From Spirochaetia bacterium (GTDB lineage Bacteria; Spirochaetota; Spirochaetia; UBA9216): a stretch of 64,000 nt of DNA. Shown here one piece after another: positions 49,544 through 57,726 of the stretch. Numbering within the stretch: the first letter of the stretch is position 1; each line of letters begins with the position of its first letter. Position numbers and translations under genes: made by a program. The DNA lies in assembly GCA_963675665.1 (NCBI GenBank), contig OY776510.1, forward strand, positions 3,680,001-3,744,000. The letters are read 5' to 3'. Under the pieces are notes generated by a model. That model was not told the origin of the DNA. It made no database searches and worked only from the letters and a program-made list of their open reading frames with translations.

Positions 49544-49572
49544 ATTATATTTCTTACGAATATGTTTGTCAA
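49544..49572 (-). promoter_or_regulatory. Consensus sigma70 promoter of flaA operon
   Basis: TTGACA-17-TATAAT exact. Confidence 0.85.
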
Positions 49573-50492
49573 ATCTTTTTCTTTTTTAACCCGTTCTGGT
49601 ACAAAAAAAATTCAGCTTCTATCAAAATCGGATCATCATAATTATCTATGCTGATATAGTTTACGATTTCCGTCAGAATACGAATTGTACCCAGTTCTAT
49701 TGAAGCCGCAATACTGTAACCAGCAAAATTCCACGGTCCTGAATTAATTGTAACAACAGAAACCGGTTTGTCGCTTAAACCCGTAACGACAGTTTCAGTA
49801 TACGGCCCTGCGAAAACTGCCGCAATACCTTCGCCGCCCTGAAAAAAAGCCTCATACCCGGTCAGAAGATCATTACCGGACACCTCCGTATCCTTAACAC
49901 TTGAAACATTCAGATTTTTTCGTTCATTTACAGTCTCCCATCCGCTGATAAAAGATGATTCAGAATCTGGATAAAGTTTTTCATCCTTAAAAAACACAGC
50001 ATGGGTTTTTTCATCCCTTGTCCCTGCCCAGACGCCTGCCGAATGGAAAGCTTTTTTGTAATCATATACAACTTTTACGGTATTATCAGTCCCGGCAGTA
50101 CTTCCGGTTCCGGTAAGAACAAATATTTTATCAGTGTATTCTCCGGCAATTTCTCCTGCTTCAGCGGAAAAAAGCGGGCTGAGGATAATATAACTTTCGC
50201 CGCAATTCTTAACCGCATCAGCAACCGCAGCCCTGTCTTTATCTTTTCCTTCAGCTTCTATTACAATTTTTTTTACTTTTTTTCCTTTGAGCCTGAAGCT
50301 TTCGCTTTGCAGAAACGGTATGTGTGAAAAAACAGCATTTTTCAGCGAATAGAATTTATCAGCTTCCAATTCACGATTCAGCGCAATATCCCAGAATTGA
50401 TCAGTGATGAGACACACAGGCTGAGAGTTTGCAGCCGCAATAAAAAATAAAACTAAAAAAACTGAAATAATTATTATCTTTTTATGATTCAT
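49569..50492 (-). CDS. Hypothetical exported protein (periplasmic-binding-protein-like)
   Basis: Signal peptide; alternating alpha/beta pattern. Confidence 0.55.
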   Translation of the reverse strand: MNHKKIIIISVFLVLFFIAAANSQPVCLITDQFWDIALNRELEADKFYSLKNAVFSHIPFLQSESFRLKGKKVKKIVIEAEGKDKDRAAVADAVKNCGESYIILSPLFSAEAGEIAGEYTDKIFVLTGTGSTAGTDNTVKVVYDYKKAFHSAGVWAGTRDEKTHAVFFKDEKLYPDSESSFISGWETVNERKNLNVSSVKDTEVSGNDLLTGYEAFFQGGEGIAAVFAGPYTETVVTGLSDKPVSVVTINSGPWNFAGYSIAASIELGTIRILTEIVNYISIDNYDDPILIEAEFFLYQNGLKKKKI

Positions 50493-51726: not shown

Positions 51727-54288
51727 ATGATAATATCAAAACACGCTGATCATACTGAAAAGCTATGCGGAATACGAGCCGAAGACATACACAAGTGGAT
51801 TGACGGGTATTTCGACAGACATAGTTTTGAGAATTTTATCGAATACGGCAGAACGCAGGGTTATGATCCGTATAACCACAGGCAGTTCAGACACTGCATT
51901 GAAGCCCTTCCCGAAGCTGTTAAGGAATTTTCCGACAAATACAGCAACAAGGATATTGAGTGCGTATTTAAATGTCACCTGGCTGATGATTATAGCGGAT
52001 ATATTCCCAACCGGGCGGATTTCACCGACGGACGCTTCATAAATAAATACCATGAAACTGCCGAAGAACCCGAAGCTGTTCTCAGCAGGACCGAGCTGGA
52101 AAAATATTTTAAAGGTCTGCATTATAAAAGTGAAGACAGGAACAAACGGCAGGGTCCTTTAAATCGGTTTTTTCTCAGAATAGCGTTGCCGTCAACAGCA
52201 GCTGTCGCTCTGTTTGTCGCCGCAGTATTCCTTTTCATGCTTCCGCAGTTTCATGACAGCCTTATGGCTGAAAAGGAGAACACCCTTGAGGAAATAACAT
52301 CGGTTGCCGTCAGCATACTGGACTACTATGCAGGGCTTGAAGCCTCCGGCGAGCTCTCCAGGGATGAAGCCCAGCGGGCATCCATAGAGGAGATAACCAA
52401 GCTTCGATATGGTCCCGATAATGACAATTACTTCTGGATTACGGACATGACGCCCGTGATGATTATGCATCCGTGGCGCCCTGATCTTATTGGTACCGAC
52501 CTGAGTGATTACAAGGACAGCATGAATCGCAGCGGTAAAAGACTTTTTGTTGAATCCGTAAAACTTGTTAATGAATCGGGAGGCGGCTTCCTTGAATACC
52601 TCTGGCAGCTTGATGAAAACGACAATCGTACTGTCCCGAAACTTTCCCGGGTAGAGGGATTTGCACTTTGGGGATGGATTATCGGAACAGGTATATACGT
52701 TAACGATGTTGAAGATGAAATTTCAGGATTAAGCAGACAGCTTGTAATAATTTTATTTTTAATCTCGGCTGTCCTGACTGTATTTCTTCTATACCTTGCG
52801 CTCCAAAGCCTCAGAATAGAACGTGAACGCAGACAGGCTGAAGCAGGGCTGATTGAAGCCAAGGAAAGGTATAGAGCCCTTGTTGAAGCCTCCAATGAAG
52901 GCTACCTCCTGATAGTGAACGGCTTGAATATCTTTTCAAACCATACCTTCAGGCGCATGACCGGCTTCCAGGAGGAAGAGATTGCCCAACCTGATTTTAC
53001 AAAAAAACTTTTTCCTGAAATAGACACAAACCAAAGAATTAAAAAACTTATTGATGAAATAAGCCGTCCGGGTTCTGCGGAATTTGAAGCCGTTATTGCA
53101 TGCCGAAGCGGTGCACGACTTGATGTTATAGTACGTAAATCCAACATTTTCCTGACAGAGTATAACGGCGTAATAGTCTCTTTCCGGTTGCTTCTTGGCA
53201 ACAGAAATATATTCTCTCCGTTTTTTGCTGCCGACACATCTCAGGCTGATCCTTATATTCTGTTTGATCAACTTGACGAAAGTCTGAACGCCATCAATGC
53301 TGTCCGTATACTGAATCTGCTTCCGGTTGCCGTCAGAACGCTTGTTTCCGACAGGGCCACATCAGAAGACATCCGCATTTTCATTTCAGACATCTATAAA
53401 AAAGGCCTTAAAAAGATTGCTTTTTTTGCTGAACAGGAACTCGGACCGCCTGTCTGTGAATATACTTTTCTGTCGCTGGGCAGCAGCGGCCGCAGCGAAC
53501 TGACTCTTTTTTCCGATCAGGACAATGCTCTTGTATTTCGAAGTGATGCCATTGATCCGGAACCCGTAAGACTTTACTTTCTTAATCTTGCAAACAGGAT
53601 CTGCAGTCTTCTAAACCAGGCGGGATTTCCTTTCTGTCCCGGCGGAATTATGGCGGTAAATCCGGCATATTGCCTTAGCTTGCAGGAATGGAAAAACAGA
53701 TACAAAGAGTGGTTTAACCAGGCGGATAAAATCTCGATTCTGGATATACACGTTTTCTTTGATATCACAACAGGATGGGGCTCCGACAGCCTGGTAAAAG
53801 AATTATACAGCTTTATTTTCTCGCAGAATGGTGTCAGTTCCGAATTCCTTCTTCACTTTGCACGCAACTGTCTTGAATACAAAGCGCCGCAGGGTATTCT
53901 AGGCAGTCTGAAAACTGAAATTCATGACGGGGTTCAGGTAATTAATCTGAAAGAAACCCTGATACCGCTGGTAAATTTCGCCCGCATTTCAGCACTAAGA
54001 GACGGAATAGAAAATCCTTCAACAACAGGCCGGCTTGAAATCTTGTACAGTAGCGGAAAGATTGACCTGGCATCATTTACAGAAATAACCCGTGCATTCG
54101 GAACCCTCTGGAAACTCAGGTTTTCCAATCAGGTTTTTGCCCATGGCGAGCTTAGAAAGGTCAACGATGATCTTGATCCGACGGCTCTCAATGCAAGGGA
54201 TTTAAAAGAACTTAAAGATGCAGTATCGGTAATCGCGGCGGTTCAGTCGCGTCTGAGCTATGAATTTCTCGGCGTGGATCTGTCATAA
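51727..54288 (+). CDS. Membrane sensor nucleotidyltransferase: His-rich N-domain, TM, sCache_2, TM, PAS, DUF294/DUF294_C
   Basis: Cache motifs YFWI..MIMHP..YLW..K..WIIGTGIY; LGSSGRSE..FSDQDNAL NTase motif; CPGGIMA.NP; FFD. Confidence 0.85.
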   Translation: MIISKHADHTEKLCGIRAEDIHKWIDGYFDRHSFENFIEYGRTQGYDPYNHRQFRHCIEALPEAVKEFSDKYSNKDIECVFKCHLADDYSGYIPNRADFTDGRFINKYHETAEEPEAVLSRTELEKYFKGLHYKSEDRNKRQGPLNRFFLRIALPSTAAVALFVAAVFLFMLPQFHDSLMAEKENTLEEITSVAVSILDYYAGLEASGELSRDEAQRASIEEITKLRYGPDNDNYFWITDMTPVMIMHPWRPDLIGTDLSDYKDSMNRSGKRLFVESVKLVNESGGGFLEYLWQLDENDNRTVPKLSRVEGFALWGWIIGTGIYVNDVEDEISGLSRQLVIILFLISAVLTVFLLYLALQSLRIERERRQAEAGLIEAKERYRALVEASNEGYLLIVNGLNIFSNHTFRRMTGFQEEEIAQPDFTKKLFPEIDTNQRIKKLIDEISRPGSAEFEAVIACRSGARLDVIVRKSNIFLTEYNGVIVSFRLLLGNRNIFSPFFAADTSQADPYILFDQLDESLNAINAVRILNLLPVAVRTLVSDRATSEDIRIFISDIYKKGLKKIAFFAEQELGPPVCEYTFLSLGSSGRSELTLFSDQDNALVFRSDAIDPEPVRLYFLNLANRICSLLNQAGFPFCPGGIMAVNPAYCLSLQEWKNRYKEWFNQADKISILDIHVFFDITTGWGSDSLVKELYSFIFSQNGVSSEFLLHFARNCLEYKAPQGILGSLKTEIHDGVQVINLKETLIPLVNFARISALRDGIENPSTTGRLEILYSSGKIDLASFTEITRAFGTLWKLRFSNQVFAHGELRKVNDDLDPTALNARDLKELKDAVSVIAAVQSRLSYEFLGVDLS

Positions 54289-54740
54289 GCAGCAATTTCG
54301 GACAGCAGCAGCGGTGCCGCGATATTTGTAAAAACGCCGGAAGATTTCAACAGCTGGACAGTAACCTCATCCGTACATGCTTTAGGCGTAATGCCCATTT
54401 CTGTAACAGCCCGCGTAAAATCAATATAGACGCTGCGGTATGCATTAATCTCTTCTTTAAGCAGTTTTCTCTTTTTCGGAAAAAAAAGCAGTGTGAATAT
54501 ACCTTCAACAGACAATGTCCCGATCAATACCTGCTGCAGTTTTGAAGGCAGGTCAATATCGTAATGATGGGTCCTTTCCCCCTCAATCAGGCCGGGCAAT
54601 ACTCCCAGATAAAGAATCCGGTCGTCACTGCCTGCCTTGAAGAGGTATCCGCCCTTCTCTGTAAGAATTTCCCTGCTGTTGAATGCGGAAACAAGGGCCG
54701 ACCTCTGCCTGAGATCGGCCTTTTTATTATTAATTACCAG
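54258..54740 (-). CDS. Hypothetical protein downstream of actP (start uncertain)
   Basis: Frame open from 54764; only TTG (54599) or CTG/ATT starts; protein-like composition. Confidence 0.4.
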   Translation of the reverse strand: MVINNKKADLRQRSALVSAFNSREILTEKGGYLFKAGSDDRILYLGVLPGLIEGERTHHYDIDLPSKLQQVLIGTLSVEGIFTLLFFPKKRKLLKEEINAYRSVYIDFTRAVTEMGITPKACTDEVTVQLLKSSGVFTNIAAPLLLSEIAAYDRSTPRNS

Positions 54741-56637
54741 CTGTTTCAGTTTCTTTTTTAACCTGGGTCAGAAGCGATACTATAACCAGGGTCAGCAAAC
54801 TGAGCGGAATTGATATAATACCCGGATTATCAATAGGTATTATCGCCTGCGACGCACTGAGTCCGTAACGCTCAAACATGCTCGGCGACAACAGAATTAT
54901 TCCGATAGCCGAAACCATGCCTACGGCAACTGATGCAGCAATACCCTTTGCAGTTGTTTTCTTCCAGAAAAGAAGCATGATGATAGCCGGAAAGTTGGCT
55001 GAGGCAGCAATTGCAAATGCCCATCCGACAAGAAACGATACATTCATTCCTTTAAAAAGGATACCAAGCAGTATGGCTATAATTCCTACGCTTACGGCAG
55101 CTATCTTTCCGATAATGACCTTTTTCCTGTCGGTCATTTCCACTTTAAAGTATCTGTCTACCAAATCATGTGCAACCGCGCCCGAAGCAGCAACAATCAG
55201 TCCGCTGACCGTTCCAAGGACCGTTGCGAATGCTATTGCGGAGATTATTGAGAACAGTACCTTGCCGAAAGCCTTTGCAAGCAACGGCGCGGCCATATTC
55301 GAACTCTCTACATCAAGAACGCCGTTAGTCATTGCACCTAGACCAATAAACAGGGTAAGTATATAGAAAAATCCTATTGCTATTATAGCAAGAATCGTAG
55401 ATTTCCTGGCATCCCTGGCGCTTGGAACCGTATAGTACCTTATTAATACATGAGGAAGTGCTGATGTGCCGAAGAACAGTGCCAGCATCAGCGAAACAAA
55501 GTTCATCTTGGATACAGGGGTTGCGCCCTTATCTACCTTGAATTTCAAACCGGGTCGAAGGATCTCGCTTCCCGGAGTGGGCTCCTGGTACCAGACGGAA
55601 ACATGACCGTCCTCGTAATCAAAGACATGTTTGGTAAAGCGGATTACAGTGCTGCTTTCGATTGTTGATATATAACTGAACGGGGTCAGAGGCCCTGTTG
55701 CATCAACCTCCTCACCGTCAACGATTATCCTGTCAAGATGCCCTACCGGATAAAAACGCTCTTCCTCTATCGGAGCCCCGTTATACAGCATTCCACTGTC
55801 TTCCAAATCAACAATGCTCAGGGCCTCGGTAAGCTTTCCCTCTTCGGTAAGCATCCACCAGTTGTCATACCCGTTATTGTGAAGCCTGACAAAACTGCCG
55901 ACTGAATCCCTGTATTGTCCGGTTATCTCATACCCGGGTTCGGCTATGGATGTTATATCTTCTCCGGCAGTCACTGCAGTCAATTCTGTAAAATCATGGT
56001 AATCGTCAGAAACATCCTTATCAAATCCTCTTGTTATTAACAGAACGACCAGAACTGTTGAAAAAACTATCAGAAGAGCACCTTTAATAAACTGAACATA
56101 CGTTGTTGATTTCATTCCTGCTGTCGCTACTATAAAAATAACAATGGACCCGACCATTATTACACCTGCATAATGCGGAAGTCCCAAAAGAGGGGTTACA
56201 AGAGCGCCGGCGCCTACCATCTGCGGTATAAGATAGAAGATGGAAACAAGAAGAGTGCTGATTCCGGCCATAAGCTGAATGGCAGGTGAATTGAACCTGG
56301 AATCAAGGGCATCGGTAAAAGTGTACTTTCCAAGTTTTTTCATCGGTTCGGCAACAACAAACAGGGCCATTACCCACCCTGCAAGATAACCTATCGAATA
56401 GAGAAACCCATCGTATCCCGAAAACGCAATCATTCCGCATATACCGAGAAACGATGCTGCAGACAGATAGTCTCCGGCAAAAGCGATACCGTTCACGGAC
56501 CAGGGAATGGTGCCGCCTGCGGCAAAATACCCTTTTGCAGAGCTTGTTTTTCTTGCGGACAGAATTGAAATTGTCAGGACCGAAGCAACAATAGCCAGAA
56601 AGAGAATTATCGGCATTAAAGAAGCGTTATAAATCAT
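54730..56637 (-). CDS. actP: Cation/acetate symporter (SSS family) with large extramembrane insertion
   Basis: NGIAFAGDYLSAASFLG, GMKSTTYVQFIK, GTSALPHVLIRYYTVP, AFATVLGTVSGL, AASANFP. Confidence 0.9.
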   Translation of the reverse strand: MIYNASLMPIILFLAIVASVLTISILSARKTSSAKGYFAAGGTIPWSVNGIAFAGDYLSAASFLGICGMIAFSGYDGFLYSIGYLAGWVMALFVVAEPMKKLGKYTFTDALDSRFNSPAIQLMAGISTLLVSIFYLIPQMVGAGALVTPLLGLPHYAGVIMVGSIVIFIVATAGMKSTTYVQFIKGALLIVFSTVLVVLLITRGFDKDVSDDYHDFTELTAVTAGEDITSIAEPGYEITGQYRDSVGSFVRLHNNGYDNWWMLTEEGKLTEALSIVDLEDSGMLYNGAPIEEERFYPVGHLDRIIVDGEEVDATGPLTPFSYISTIESSTVIRFTKHVFDYEDGHVSVWYQEPTPGSEILRPGLKFKVDKGATPVSKMNFVSLMLALFFGTSALPHVLIRYYTVPSARDARKSTILAIIAIGFFYILTLFIGLGAMTNGVLDVESSNMAAPLLAKAFGKVLFSIISAIAFATVLGTVSGLIVAASGAVAHDLVDRYFKVEMTDRKKVIIGKIAAVSVGIIAILLGILFKGMNVSFLVGWAFAIAASANFPAIIMLLFWKKTTAKGIAASVAVGMVSAIGIILLSPSMFERYGLSASQAIIPIDNPGIISIPLSLLTLVIVSLLTQVKKETETAGN

Positions 56638-56930
56638 TTTTCATCTTCTCCTTCGTCCGATAAAGCATTTAATTCATTTTCTTTTTTCGTACATATTGCG
56701 TTATAGACTATTCCGGCAATTATTGCCAGGATAATAAGTCCGAACCCGTAAGTGACGGCCAGATTCAAGCCCAGAACAACAGAAACCCCCATAAGTTTGG
56801 GAGCTACAGTGTTTATAATGATAAATCCGGCATACACAACAGCATAAGCAATAAACATTCGGATTCCTATTTTCTTTTTAAATTCAGATGCTGGATCTTT
56901 CCCGGCGGGAACGGCAGGTTCGTGCAACAT
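56634..56930 (-). CDS. DUF485 (YjcH-like) small membrane partner of ActP
   Basis: Two TM helices; ATGA overlap with actP; AAGGAG RBS. Confidence 0.85.
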   Translation of the reverse strand: MLHEPAVPAGKDPASEFKKKIGIRMFIAYAVVYAGFIIINTVAPKLMGVSVVLGLNLAVTYGFGLIILAIIAGIVYNAICTKKENELNALSDEGEDEK

Positions 56931-57117
56931 TAAATTCTCCTTTTAATAATGTTTATTAACAATATCATATTAATATGGATAGTCAAGTTTTATACTGTTT
57001 ACAATTTCAAAACGATTTCAAAATGATCATTCAAATTGTATAGCCAAGAAAACTATAATTTTGTATAGTAACCCGCTGATTCTTCAGCTAAAGTTATATA
57101 AATCATGGGAGATTTTA

Positions 57118-57726
57118 ATGTCTACATCACAGACTTACGGAAACCCGGCGCCGTTAGGCCTTCTGGGTTTCGGTTTGACTACAGTTCTGCTTAATATTCA
57201 CAATGCAGGGTTTTATCCTCTTACATCGATGATACTCGGAATGGGAATTTTCGTCGGGGGGCTGGCACAGGTCATTGCCGGTATCCAGGAATGGAAAGTC
57301 AATAATACCTTTGGTGCCACAGCATTCACTTTGTACGGTTTTTTCTGGCTGTCATTTGTTGCACTCAAGGTTTTACCTTCAGAAACAGTTATGTCAGCCG
57401 CTTCCGCTGATATGGGTTTTTATCTGCTTTTGTGGGGGCTGTTCACTCTTTTCATGTTTTTCGGAACACTTAAAATCAGCCGCGCACACCAGACTGTTTT
57501 CATGAGTCTGACTATTCTTTTTTTCCTTCTTGCAATCGCCGATTTTACGGAAAATCATACAATTAAAACAATTGCAGGATTTGAAGGTATTTTCTGCGGA
57601 GCTTCCGCTTTCTACACTGCTGCAGCAATTGTGCTTAACGAGGTGTATGGGAAAACAATCCTGCCGCTTGGAATTGCCGCAGATGTAATCGCAGGCAAAG
57701 CGGAACTTGAAGCAATAGCAATCTGA
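57118..57726 (+). CDS. satP: Acetate/succinate uptake transporter (GPR1/FUN34/YaaH)
   Basis: [11 protein letters not shown] signature, [21 protein letters not shown]. Confidence 0.95.

Follow-up and report, generated by a model that had tools for sequence, protein, structure and literature searches.

As far as we know, the outputs described for bacterial transmembrane receptors are kinases, chemotaxis adaptors, cyclases and c-di-GMP enzymes. The carboxylate sensors PscD, McpP and Adeh_3718 have as their output a methyl-accepting chemotaxis protein (MCP) signalling domain that feeds CheA, and the monocarboxylate permease MctP is controlled by the carboxylate-responsive two-component system MctSR. 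In the protein-nucleotidylating enzymes GlnE and GlnD, the writer comes with an activity that undoes its mark: an adenylyl-removing (AR) domain in GlnE, and in GlnD an HD domain, which is the mark-removing part of the protein. Here we describe a gene of a Spirochaetia bacterium that joins a Cache sensor to a GlnE-like nucleotidyltransferase (NTase) in a single membrane protein of 853 residues, hereafter the receptor. It lies at 51727..54288 on the plus strand of a stretch of 64,000 nucleotides (assembly GCA_963675665.1, contig OY776510.1, positions 3,680,001 to 3,744,000), which we call the window and to which all coordinates refer unless a locus is named; the host genome is a single contig of 5.15 Mb. 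The receptor may be a protein NTase gated by carboxylates that has a phosphodiesterase-like partner domain of its own and serves to tune the uptake or assimilation of monocarboxylates, a reading that we regard as evenly balanced between right and wrong.

The open reading frame (ORF) begins with an all-helical domain rich in His and Asp that distantly resembles DUF6915 (the N-domain; residues 1 to ~130; 51727..52116), as seen in alignments. A hydropathy scan places transmembrane (TM) segments at residues 148-177 (TM1; 52168..52257) and 331-364 (TM2; 52717..52818). Between them is an sCache_2 domain with a pocket for C2/C3 carboxylates (residues 180-334; 52264..52728), identified by Pfam and by sequence matches in the PDB. 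TM2 is followed by a PAS domain (residues 380-484; 52864..53178; Pfam PAS, PAS_9 and PAS_8, and TIGR00229), a DUF294 core of the pol-beta NTase type (residues 535-667; 53329..53727; Pfam, invariance and fold match) and a helical DUF294_C domain of the KNTase_C/HEPN-like kind (residues 706-847; 53842..54267; Pfam and fold match), all on the plus strand. The Pfam assignments all exceed their cut-offs: sCache_2 (PF17200) at E = 9e-32 and 110.5 bits against 25, PAS (residues 380-476) at E = 3e-5, DUF294 (PF03445) at E = 6e-36 and 123.8 bits against 21, and, following it, DUF294_C (PF10335) at E = 2e-27 and 96 bits against 22.5. Two TM segments would put the Cache domain outside the cytoplasm and both of its flanks inside, and basic residues before TM1 indicate that residues 1-147 and 365-853 are the cytoplasmic parts.

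The Pfam scan of the receptor found no kinase, cyclase, GGDEF/EAL, MCP, DNA-binding, cNMP or CBS domain and no HisKA/HATPase_c transmitter, which rules out its identity as a histidine kinase, a cyclase or a transcription factor. A preliminary description of the locus had given the 853-residue frame, the order TM-sCache_2-TM-PAS-DUF294-DUF294_C and the lack of kinase and cyclase domains, all of which are borne out by the ORF, its translation, Pfam and hydropathy. That layout was incomplete, as it overlooked residues 1 to ~147, which hold a conserved cytoplasmic domain and not a mere leader.

Among solved structures, the Cache domain is closest in sequence to PscD (5g4y) and Adeh_3718 (4k08), each at E = 2e-32. 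According to the available part of the PscD study (PMC5062169), PscD of Pseudomonas syringae binds glycolate, acetate, propionate and pyruvate, and contacts propionate through Tyr90, Trp92, His103, Phe126, Tyr143, Trp145 and Lys156; the same part gives these seven residues as identical across PscD, McpP and Adeh_3718. The sensor domain of the receptor is ~45% alike to theirs over ~150 residues and keeps all seven (Y235, W237, H248, F274, Y291, W293 and K305), and each is invariant in an alignment of 24 receptor sequences. A difference occurs in the second shell, where Met129 of PscD corresponds to Ser277. The nearest sensors in NCBIfam are the monocarboxylate-transport kinase MctS, with a resemblance confined to the Cache domain, and the chemoreceptor CtpM. 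Because the pocket is retained in full and these are the nearest sensors, the receptor is likely to sense C2/C3 monocarboxylates; the carboxylate sensing proposed in the preliminary description is thus supported. The difference from PscD, McpP and Adeh_3718 lies in the output, which in the receptor is an enzyme on the same polypeptide.

The catalytic motif of this enzyme is intact and reads G585-S-S-G-R589-S-E591-L-T-L-F-S-D597-Q-D599-N600. It had been written before as GS.GR.E..SDQDN, which is correct in its residues and wrong in its spacing, with four residues and not two between the Glu and SDQDN. G585, S586, R589, E591, D597, Q598, D599, N600 and D679 are invariant among the 24 homologues, and D679 would be the third catalytic carboxylate. 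By sequence, the module stands apart from its characterized relatives. No related sequence turned up in the PDB with a profile of the last 358 residues of the receptor (an unrelated lyase came first, at E = 0.038), a search of the PDB with the single sequence gave no match for the DUF294 module, and the receptor does not match Pfam GlnE (PF03710) or GlnD_UR_UTase (PF08335) at E <= 0.01. Two homologues give sub-threshold scores: that of the metagenome locus L088 reaches 21.4 bits for GlnE, against a cut-off of 24, and P0126 reaches 21.4 bits for GlnD_UR_UTase with no single stretch passing alone.

The fold is more informative. An AlphaFold2 (AF2) model of the output module (predicted local distance difference test, pLDDT, 90; predicted template modelling score, pTM, 0.88) was aligned by VIA-align across both domains with the N-terminal AR domain of GlnE (1v4a; Z 27.2, 316 residues aligned), the adenylyltransferase (AT) domain of GlnE (3k7d; Z 26.5, 314 residues) and the AMPylation domain of DrrA (6yx5; Z 26.2, 295 residues). 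The best other match to both domains is ANT(4') (Z 9.1, 234 residues). Between these lie partial fragments of DrrA (Z 11-13) and HEPN-like matches to the C-terminal domain alone (Z <= 10.0); the fold of DUF294_C matches the C-terminal halves of GlnE and DrrA, and HEPN domains. Foldseek returns the same three structures on top, with E values of 2e-8 to 1e-7 (2.4e-8 for DrrA). Because the whole module matches GlnE and DrrA at Z 26-27 and the next two-domain match falls to Z 9.1, we place the modelled output module in the fold class of enzymes that add nucleotides to proteins or remove them, in the same superfamily as GlnE and GlnD and outside their Pfam families. This supports the GlnE/GlnD-type protein-modifying output that had been suggested before. 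An aminoglycoside-type NTase acting on small molecules is unlikely, with Z values of 7-9 against 26-27.

With GlnE and GlnD the receptor shares a pol-beta NTase followed by a helical C-terminal domain, the G-S...D-x-D motif and, as proposed here, control of a protein-nucleotidylating enzyme by a sensor. The identity to its module is just 13-16%, the receptor is bound to the membrane and has an extracytoplasmic ligand sensor, it has no link to nitrogen genes, and its partner domain is DUF6915-like where theirs is an HD or a second NTase domain. DrrA (SidM) of Legionella is a secreted effector with guanine nucleotide exchange factor (GEF) and lipid-binding domains and acts on host Rab; the fold that serves as an effector module there would be the output of a bacterial receptor here.

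NTases of the pol-beta type also include RNA-tailing and messenger-making enzymes. DUF294 might accordingly tail RNA 3' ends or make an oligonucleotide-type messenger, with its partner degrading the product, although we consider this very unlikely. The TM-Cache-PAS-enzyme layout is that of messenger-making cyclases, and VIA-align finds a likeness (Z ~6.5) between the helices that precede the NTase core and the signalling helices found in phytochrome-linked cyclases. Such linker helices in the model also fit a sensor-linker-enzyme design in general. The module as a whole, however, matches GlnE and DrrA alone at Z 26-27, with ANT(4') and AAD(9) at Z 7-9, and a single oligonucleotide-bound NTase, Hailong HalB, is found among the structural matches listed (Z 6.6). 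The available part of a published study further assigns DUF294_C to one Pfam clan with the C-terminal domains of GlnD and GlnE (PMC3710099).

The strongest candidate partner of the NTase is the N-domain. A six-frame scan of the host genome finds exactly two NTase modules and two N-domains, paired 1:1. The second DUF294 gene encodes a soluble PAS-CBS-DUF294-DUF294_C protein of 700 residues (L064:8826-10928), and 7 bases past its stop codon starts a stand-alone N-domain gene whose product of 110 residues is 49% identical to residues 1-109 of the receptor (E = 7e-39). This pair (G000:C1:1310825-1313268, or L064:8826-11268) is followed by a lipoprotein-like gene and genes for an fn3 protein, a DEAD-box helicase and an FGGY kinase, and the order of pair, helicase and kinase recurs at the metagenome locus L079.

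Coupling of the two elements extends to other genomes. A metagenome scan with the stand-alone N-domain gave 53 loci, in 37 of which the frame ends inside the contig (it runs off in the other 16); the 37 comprise 31 fused forms (851-935 residues), 3 stand-alone genes, 1 split gene and 2 short fragments. At L079, the stand-alone gene begins 3 bases after a PAS-CBS-DUF294 gene. At L081, it directly follows a gene for a Cache-PAS-CBS-DUF294 protein of 845 residues that has no N-domain of its own, and just upstream of that gene is an ActP/MctC-like gene. A stand-alone copy at L083 is cut by the contig end and therefore uninformative. In all three informative cases (L064, L079 and L081), the distance from a DUF294 gene to the stand-alone N-domain gene downstream is thus 0-7 bp. 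Since the N-domain is either fused to the NTase or encoded directly behind it, the two stand in a Rosetta-stone relation, which on sequence grounds indicates that they work together. A complex prediction for the N-domain (residues 1-135) with residues 375-853 scored 0.00, and nothing is drawn from it.

When 1.84 billion representative proteins were searched with a profile of the N-domain, just 99 clusters matched at E <= 1e-3, 45 of them at E <= 1e-10. The latter include 18 with at least 500 residues and 13 of 106-120 residues. Ten long matches at this threshold were scanned with Pfam; nine prove to be Cache(-PAS)(-CBS)-DUF294 proteins, whole or as N-terminal fragments, and the tenth is a repeat protein matched via low-complexity stretches. 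In the metagenome relative at L088:4001-6558, the receptor is divided between an ORF of 236 residues (the N-domain and on into the Cache domain) and one of 616 residues (the remaining Cache domain, PAS and DUF294). The two overlap by 4 bases; the gene could be genuinely split, or the break could stem from a frameshift or an error in sequencing.

The N-domain is also the best-conserved part of the receptor, with a mean column identity of 65% against 55% for the NTase module. H6, H22, D26, R52, H56, H84, D88, Y89, P94, D98, F99, F104 and H109 are invariant, and this set, leaving aside F99 and F104, holds in fused and stand-alone forms. Its scores for DUF6915 (PF21866) fall below the cut-off of 27 bits: 16.3 for the N-domain of the window, 16.5-24.6 for homologues and 21.2 for the stand-alone copy. 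Its profile nevertheless reaches P0172 (E = 9e-8) and P0160 (E = 3e-15), which exceed the DUF6915 cut-off with 41.6 and 32.3 bits, and an Atlas feature search ranks DUF6915 clusters first (0.96-0.97), with nothing above 0.75 among other named clusters. The N-domain therefore appears to be a distant DUF6915 relative that forms a distinct subfamily. DUF6915 is mostly a phage family and makes up the weak tail of the profile matches. PHROGs gave no match for the N-domain itself, while distant DUF6915 proteins match phrog_8143, of unknown function; the literature searched makes no mention of DUF6915 or PF21866.

Soluble DUF294 proteins have a different partner in the same place. The Vibrio and Corallincola genomes that encode receptors contain four further DUF294 genes, three for cNMP-CBS-DUF294 proteins and one for a CBS-DUF294 protein. 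The next gene downstream of each encodes an RNase_T-family protein of 227-242 residues and either overlaps the DUF294 gene or starts within 6 bases of it (starts as called by script). In a Vibrio genome (L143; G401:C11:47500-57500), the order is cNMP-CBS-DUF294, RNase_T and acetyl-CoA synthetase. In Corallincola (L144; G402:C4:107500-118000), DUF4212 and SSF genes precede CBS-DUF294 and RNase_T, and a hybrid kinase gene of 1167 codons follows. The preliminary description had placed soluble cNMP-CBS-DUF294 proteins beside a DEDDh exonuclease, and this held for all four genes of these two gammaproteobacterial genomes. No N-domain was found near any of the four. Conversely, the 666 ORFs of 61 receptor loci include no exonuclease-like ORF, the window cluster has none, and the sole exonuclease-like ORF of the host genome is ~0.6 Mb from the receptor. 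A FastTree phylogeny of 29 NTase modules separates exonuclease-partnered from N-domain-partnered sequences with support of 1.0; subclades with fused and stand-alone N-domains are weakly supported (0.6 and 0.77).

The shared genomic position and the mutual exclusivity of the two partners suggest that the His/Asp-rich N-domain and the exonuclease fulfil one and the same function for the respective NTase. By analogy, the N-domain would cleave phosphodiesters and remove the mark, as the HD domain does in GlnD. The occurrence of an RNase_T-family 3'-5' exonuclease as the conserved partner in all four soluble systems is also a point in favour of a nucleic acid or oligonucleotide as the substrate of DUF294.

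Soluble systems of this kind are tied to short-chain carboxylate metabolism. In the available part of a recent preprint, the DUF294-exonuclease operon of Pseudomonas alloputida is the one whose dependence on MxtR/ErdR is strongest, and growth on propionate is slower when it is deleted (bioRxiv 10.64898/2026.09.07.749794). The accessible text of another study places the P. fluorescens orthologue, pflu5625, in the CrbS/R regulon and reports a mutant without phenotype (PMC5715377), and that of a third gives the P. aeruginosa PA3232-PA3235 cluster as up ~16-fold on propionate (PMC9765439). These proteins (PP_0354/PP_0353 of P. alloputida and pflu5625 of P. fluorescens) are themselves uncharacterized. 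In common with the receptor they have the DUF294/DUF294_C output, a partner gene immediately downstream and, as far as these sources go, the connection to carboxylates through the CrbS/R-MxtR/ErdR regulon and the propionate growth defect. They differ in sensing with cytoplasmic cNMP/CBS domains instead of a periplasmic Cache domain, in the DEDDh exonuclease that takes the place of the DUF6915-like domain, and in belonging to the separate NTase clade.

The N-domain could itself be the target of the NTase. In such a relay, the N-domain or its stand-alone paralogue would be nucleotidylated, for example on Tyr89, and would then, in its modified or its unmodified form, bind and gate the symporter or another effector, giving a carboxylate circuit like GlnD-GlnK-AmtB within one membrane protein. 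We see this as possible, if rather unlikely. Tyrosine is the residue modified by enzymes of the GlnE/DrrA type, and the three closest structural relatives of the module (GlnE AR, GlnE AT and DrrA) all act on protein tyrosine. Y89 lies in a DDY.GY.P motif and is invariant, and Y72 and Y92 are nearly so, in fused and stand-alone forms alike. The relay would also suit the obligate 1:1 coupling, in which the two are fused or their genes are 0-7 bp apart, and the position of the fused N-domain, tethered at the membrane by TM1 within reach of a transporter. Against it, six invariant His and four Asp resemble a metal or catalytic site more than an acceptor loop, and the equivalent slot in the soluble systems is filled by an enzyme, the RNase T-like exonuclease, and by no small signalling protein.

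The receptor belongs to a sizeable family. A word-indexed protein search, in which the 7,999 best candidates were scored, found at least 330 homologues at E <= 0.001; among the matches listed, 120 of 120 carry sCache_2 and DUF294, and in most the alignment spans 100% of the query, with identities of 41-58%. A scan of 185,579 species, with one genome for each, gave 221 encoded relatives. Their hosts are Spirochaetota, Verrucomicrobiota (Kiritimatiellales, Pontiella and others), Phycisphaerae and Sedimentisphaerales, further Fibrobacterales, Cloacimonadota and Delongbacteria, and a few others that include Vibrio and Corallincola. Within the phylum of the window, the N-domain is present in 4 of 401 sampled genomes. 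A subgroup of receptors with ~930 residues has CBS domains inserted between PAS and DUF294. Close to the receptors of Vibrio and Corallincola, additional ORFs that had been grouped with the receptor were set aside as MCPs that have only the Cache domain in common. Databases label the receptor homologues by domain alone, and the literature searched describes no function for DUF294, DUF6915 or any Cache-NTase receptor, in agreement with the earlier statement that no characterized receptor of this type was known. The Cache sensor, the GlnE-like NTase and the SSF symporter discussed below are each of a known kind; new to that literature are the way they are joined, the obligate partner of DUF6915 type and the replacement of this partner by an exonuclease.

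The surroundings of the receptor gene point to monocarboxylate transport. It is convergent on genes for an MctC/ActP-like Na+/monocarboxylate symporter of the SSF family (635 residues; 54730..56637, minus strand; Pfam SSF and NCBIfam) and a small membrane protein of the DUF485 (YjcH-like) family (56634..56930, minus strand; Pfam). The DUF485 gene overlaps the start of the actP-like gene by 4 bases and is the only one in the host genome. Beyond it is a gene for a SatP/AceTr acetate uptake channel (Gpr1/Fun34/YaaH; 57061..57726, plus strand; Pfam), with 271.8 bits for AceTr_1 against a cut-off of 50. The neighbours are thus those of the preliminary description, which had the receptor convergent on DUF485-actP and next to satP. 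The symporter scores 228 bits for Pfam SSF (cut-off 22.8), and 451.8 bits for MctC and 412.9 bits for ActP, whose equivalog cut-offs are 670 and 750; it is ActP/MctC-like by these scores, and its substrate assignment is a prediction. A hydrophilic insertion of ~170 residues (~208-378) between hydrophobic segments splits its family match and, from the charge pattern, is probably periplasmic. Receptor-linked symporter homologues in other phyla likewise have 620-660 residues.

We surveyed 61 receptor loci, in which ORFs were called by a crude script and grouped by BLAST, and one representative of each recurrent group was compared with Pfam or NCBIfam. An ActP-like SSF gene lies within 5 kb of the receptor in 21 of the 60 loci with a called receptor ORF (L033 was dropped) and in 14 of the 30 loci that have at least 4 kb on both sides. 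Seventeen of these 30 fully flanked loci have either an ActP-like SSF or a DUF3360 neighbour with multiple TM segments. The genes that accompany the symporter vary with the host. Spirochaetes show the order receptor, small ORF, ActP-like gene and DUF485; Kiritimatiellales and Verrucomicrobiota have an OprD-like porin with ActP-like and DUF485 genes; and Opitutales and Puniceicoccales have a DcaP-like porin besides a VC_2705-family symporter and the small subunit that belongs to it. In loci of the ~930-residue CBS form (Armatimonadota, Cloacimonadota, Delongbacteria and Spirochaetaceae metagenome-assembled genomes), a TPR protein is encoded beside the symporter, which in the one locus typed (L030) is of the VC_2705 family and has a small subunit. 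Since two distinct SSF subfamilies are involved, MctC/ActP-like with DUF485 and VC_2705, their recruitment speaks for a functional connection and against simple inheritance of the neighbourhood. The neighbour enrichment is real for ActP-type symporters and partial in extent. The linkage to satP is not conserved, with SatP neighbours in 2 of the 61 loci.

DUF3360 (PF11840; ~500 residues, at least 8 hydrophobic segments) is a divergent upstream neighbour in Vibrio, Corallincola and Fibrobacterales. It occurs in five loci (L039, L040, L059, L011 and L012, at about 6.1-7.7 kb in each) and may be another carboxylate transporter.

The pairing of a carboxylate sensor with an SSF permease has precedents in MctS/MctR-MctP and CrbS/CrbR-ActP/Acs, where a carboxylate-responsive sensor lies beside, or controls, a monocarboxylate permease of this family. 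In contrast to these, the receptor has no histidine kinase, receiver or DNA-binding domain, and its control would be post-translational where theirs is transcriptional.

A direct form of such control was put forward in the preliminary description, in which the receptor transfers a nucleoside monophosphate (NMP) to a neighbour, namely the ActP-like protein, DUF485, SatP or the small ORF product; under this version, the N-domain would be merely structural. The convergent, adjacent position of the DUF485-actP-like genes, the symporters near the receptor in the locus survey and the presence of the sole DUF485 gene of the genome beside it are consistent with this version, which we nonetheless judge improbable. 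SatP and the small ORF are too rarely conserved as neighbours, the small ORF being present in 4 receptor loci besides the window. The two symporter subfamilies have different small subunits, and no single conserved acceptor is evident. Moreover, in 13 of the 30 fully flanked loci neither an ActP-like gene nor one for DUF3360 is near the receptor, so the target need not be an adjacent transporter. The soluble paralogue pair of the host genome (L064) also has no transporter nearby, and the insertion of the ActP-like protein is probably on the periplasmic side. No observation marks ActP, DUF485 or SatP as the acceptor.

In spirochaete loci, the small ORF itself (113 residues, no family; 54258..54599, minus strand) separates the receptor from the ActP-like gene, and it carries a GERTHHYDI motif. 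Its homologues in four related loci have 76-212 residues (L004:10527-10994, L006:10535-11041, L001:1183-1413 and L056:7327-7965), and the copy in the window is without ~50 N-terminal residues of the longer ones. It lies beyond a terminator-like hairpin of 10 pairs, 7 of them G-C, which a consensus scan placed just after the stop codon of the actP-like gene (54696..54720, minus strand). Upstream of the receptor are genes for FlaA sheath proteins, which identify the host as a spirochaete. Between them and a class II aldolase gene is an ORF of 307 residues (49569-50492, minus strand) whose product has a hydrophobic segment at its N-terminus and matches no family in Pfam or NCBIfam.

Taken together, we favour a one-component transmembrane receptor whose periplasmic sCache_2 domain would bind a C2/C3 carboxylate of the acetate, propionate, glycolate or pyruvate type. 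The signal would pass from the Cache domain through TM2, the helical linker and PAS to the cytoplasmic NTase, and the NTase, with its GlnE/DrrA fold, would transfer an NMP to a protein hydroxyl, most likely that of a tyrosine by analogy with GlnE, GlnD and DrrA. The obligately paired N-domain would reverse or edit the mark as a metal-dependent phosphodiesterase, so that NTase and N-domain could be likened to the NTase and HD domain of GlnD. The net effect, in whichever direction the regulation may run, would be post-translational tuning of monocarboxylate uptake or assimilation, in the host genome by way of the adjacent DUF485-ActP-like symporter. This proposal and the alternatives overlap in part.

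Several points weigh against the favoured mechanism. The ligand pocket was mapped by hand on the alignment of the PDB search, with the strings YFW, MHP, VFNEM, NYRW and KK and the published numbers of Asn94 and Met129 as anchors. The AR and AT domains of GlnE share one fold, so the fold is blind to whether DUF294 adds or removes a nucleotide, and the literature searched contains no biochemical data on any DUF294 protein. The N-domain model is moderately confident (pLDDT 72.8); Foldseek found no PDB match to it at E <= 1e-3, the best VIA-align hit over 48,161 chains has a Z of 4.9, which assigns no fold, and no similarity to HD or another hydrolase fold was detectable. Residue types and genomic position are what suggest a hydrolase, and the exonuclease of the soluble systems fits a nucleic-acid or oligonucleotide substrate equally well. 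To these are added the crude gene calls of the locus survey and the 13 loci without a transporter neighbour. Finally, no AcsA over the family cut-off was found in the host genome (best 146.7 bits against 724.95).

If the mechanism holds, the receptor would be the first transmembrane chemoreceptor-type protein with reversible protein nucleotidylation as its output, and thus a new receptor class. More broadly, DUF294 systems might be a widespread writer/eraser signalling device for short-chain carboxylates, and the N-domain either a new family of de-nucleotidylating metalloenzymes in place of the RNase T-like partner or a PII-like acceptor that plugs ActP, a prospect we find doubtful but worth stating. 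The finding bears on a question that the available parts of the literature leave open in Pseudomonas and Vibrio, the role of the CrbS/R-dependent operon of DUF294 NTase and exonuclease. The receptor family offers a tractable entry to it, with a C2/C3 ligand that can be predicted, anchorage in the membrane and a partner domain fused on the same chain, and it gives DUF6915, mostly a phage family, a first functional context.

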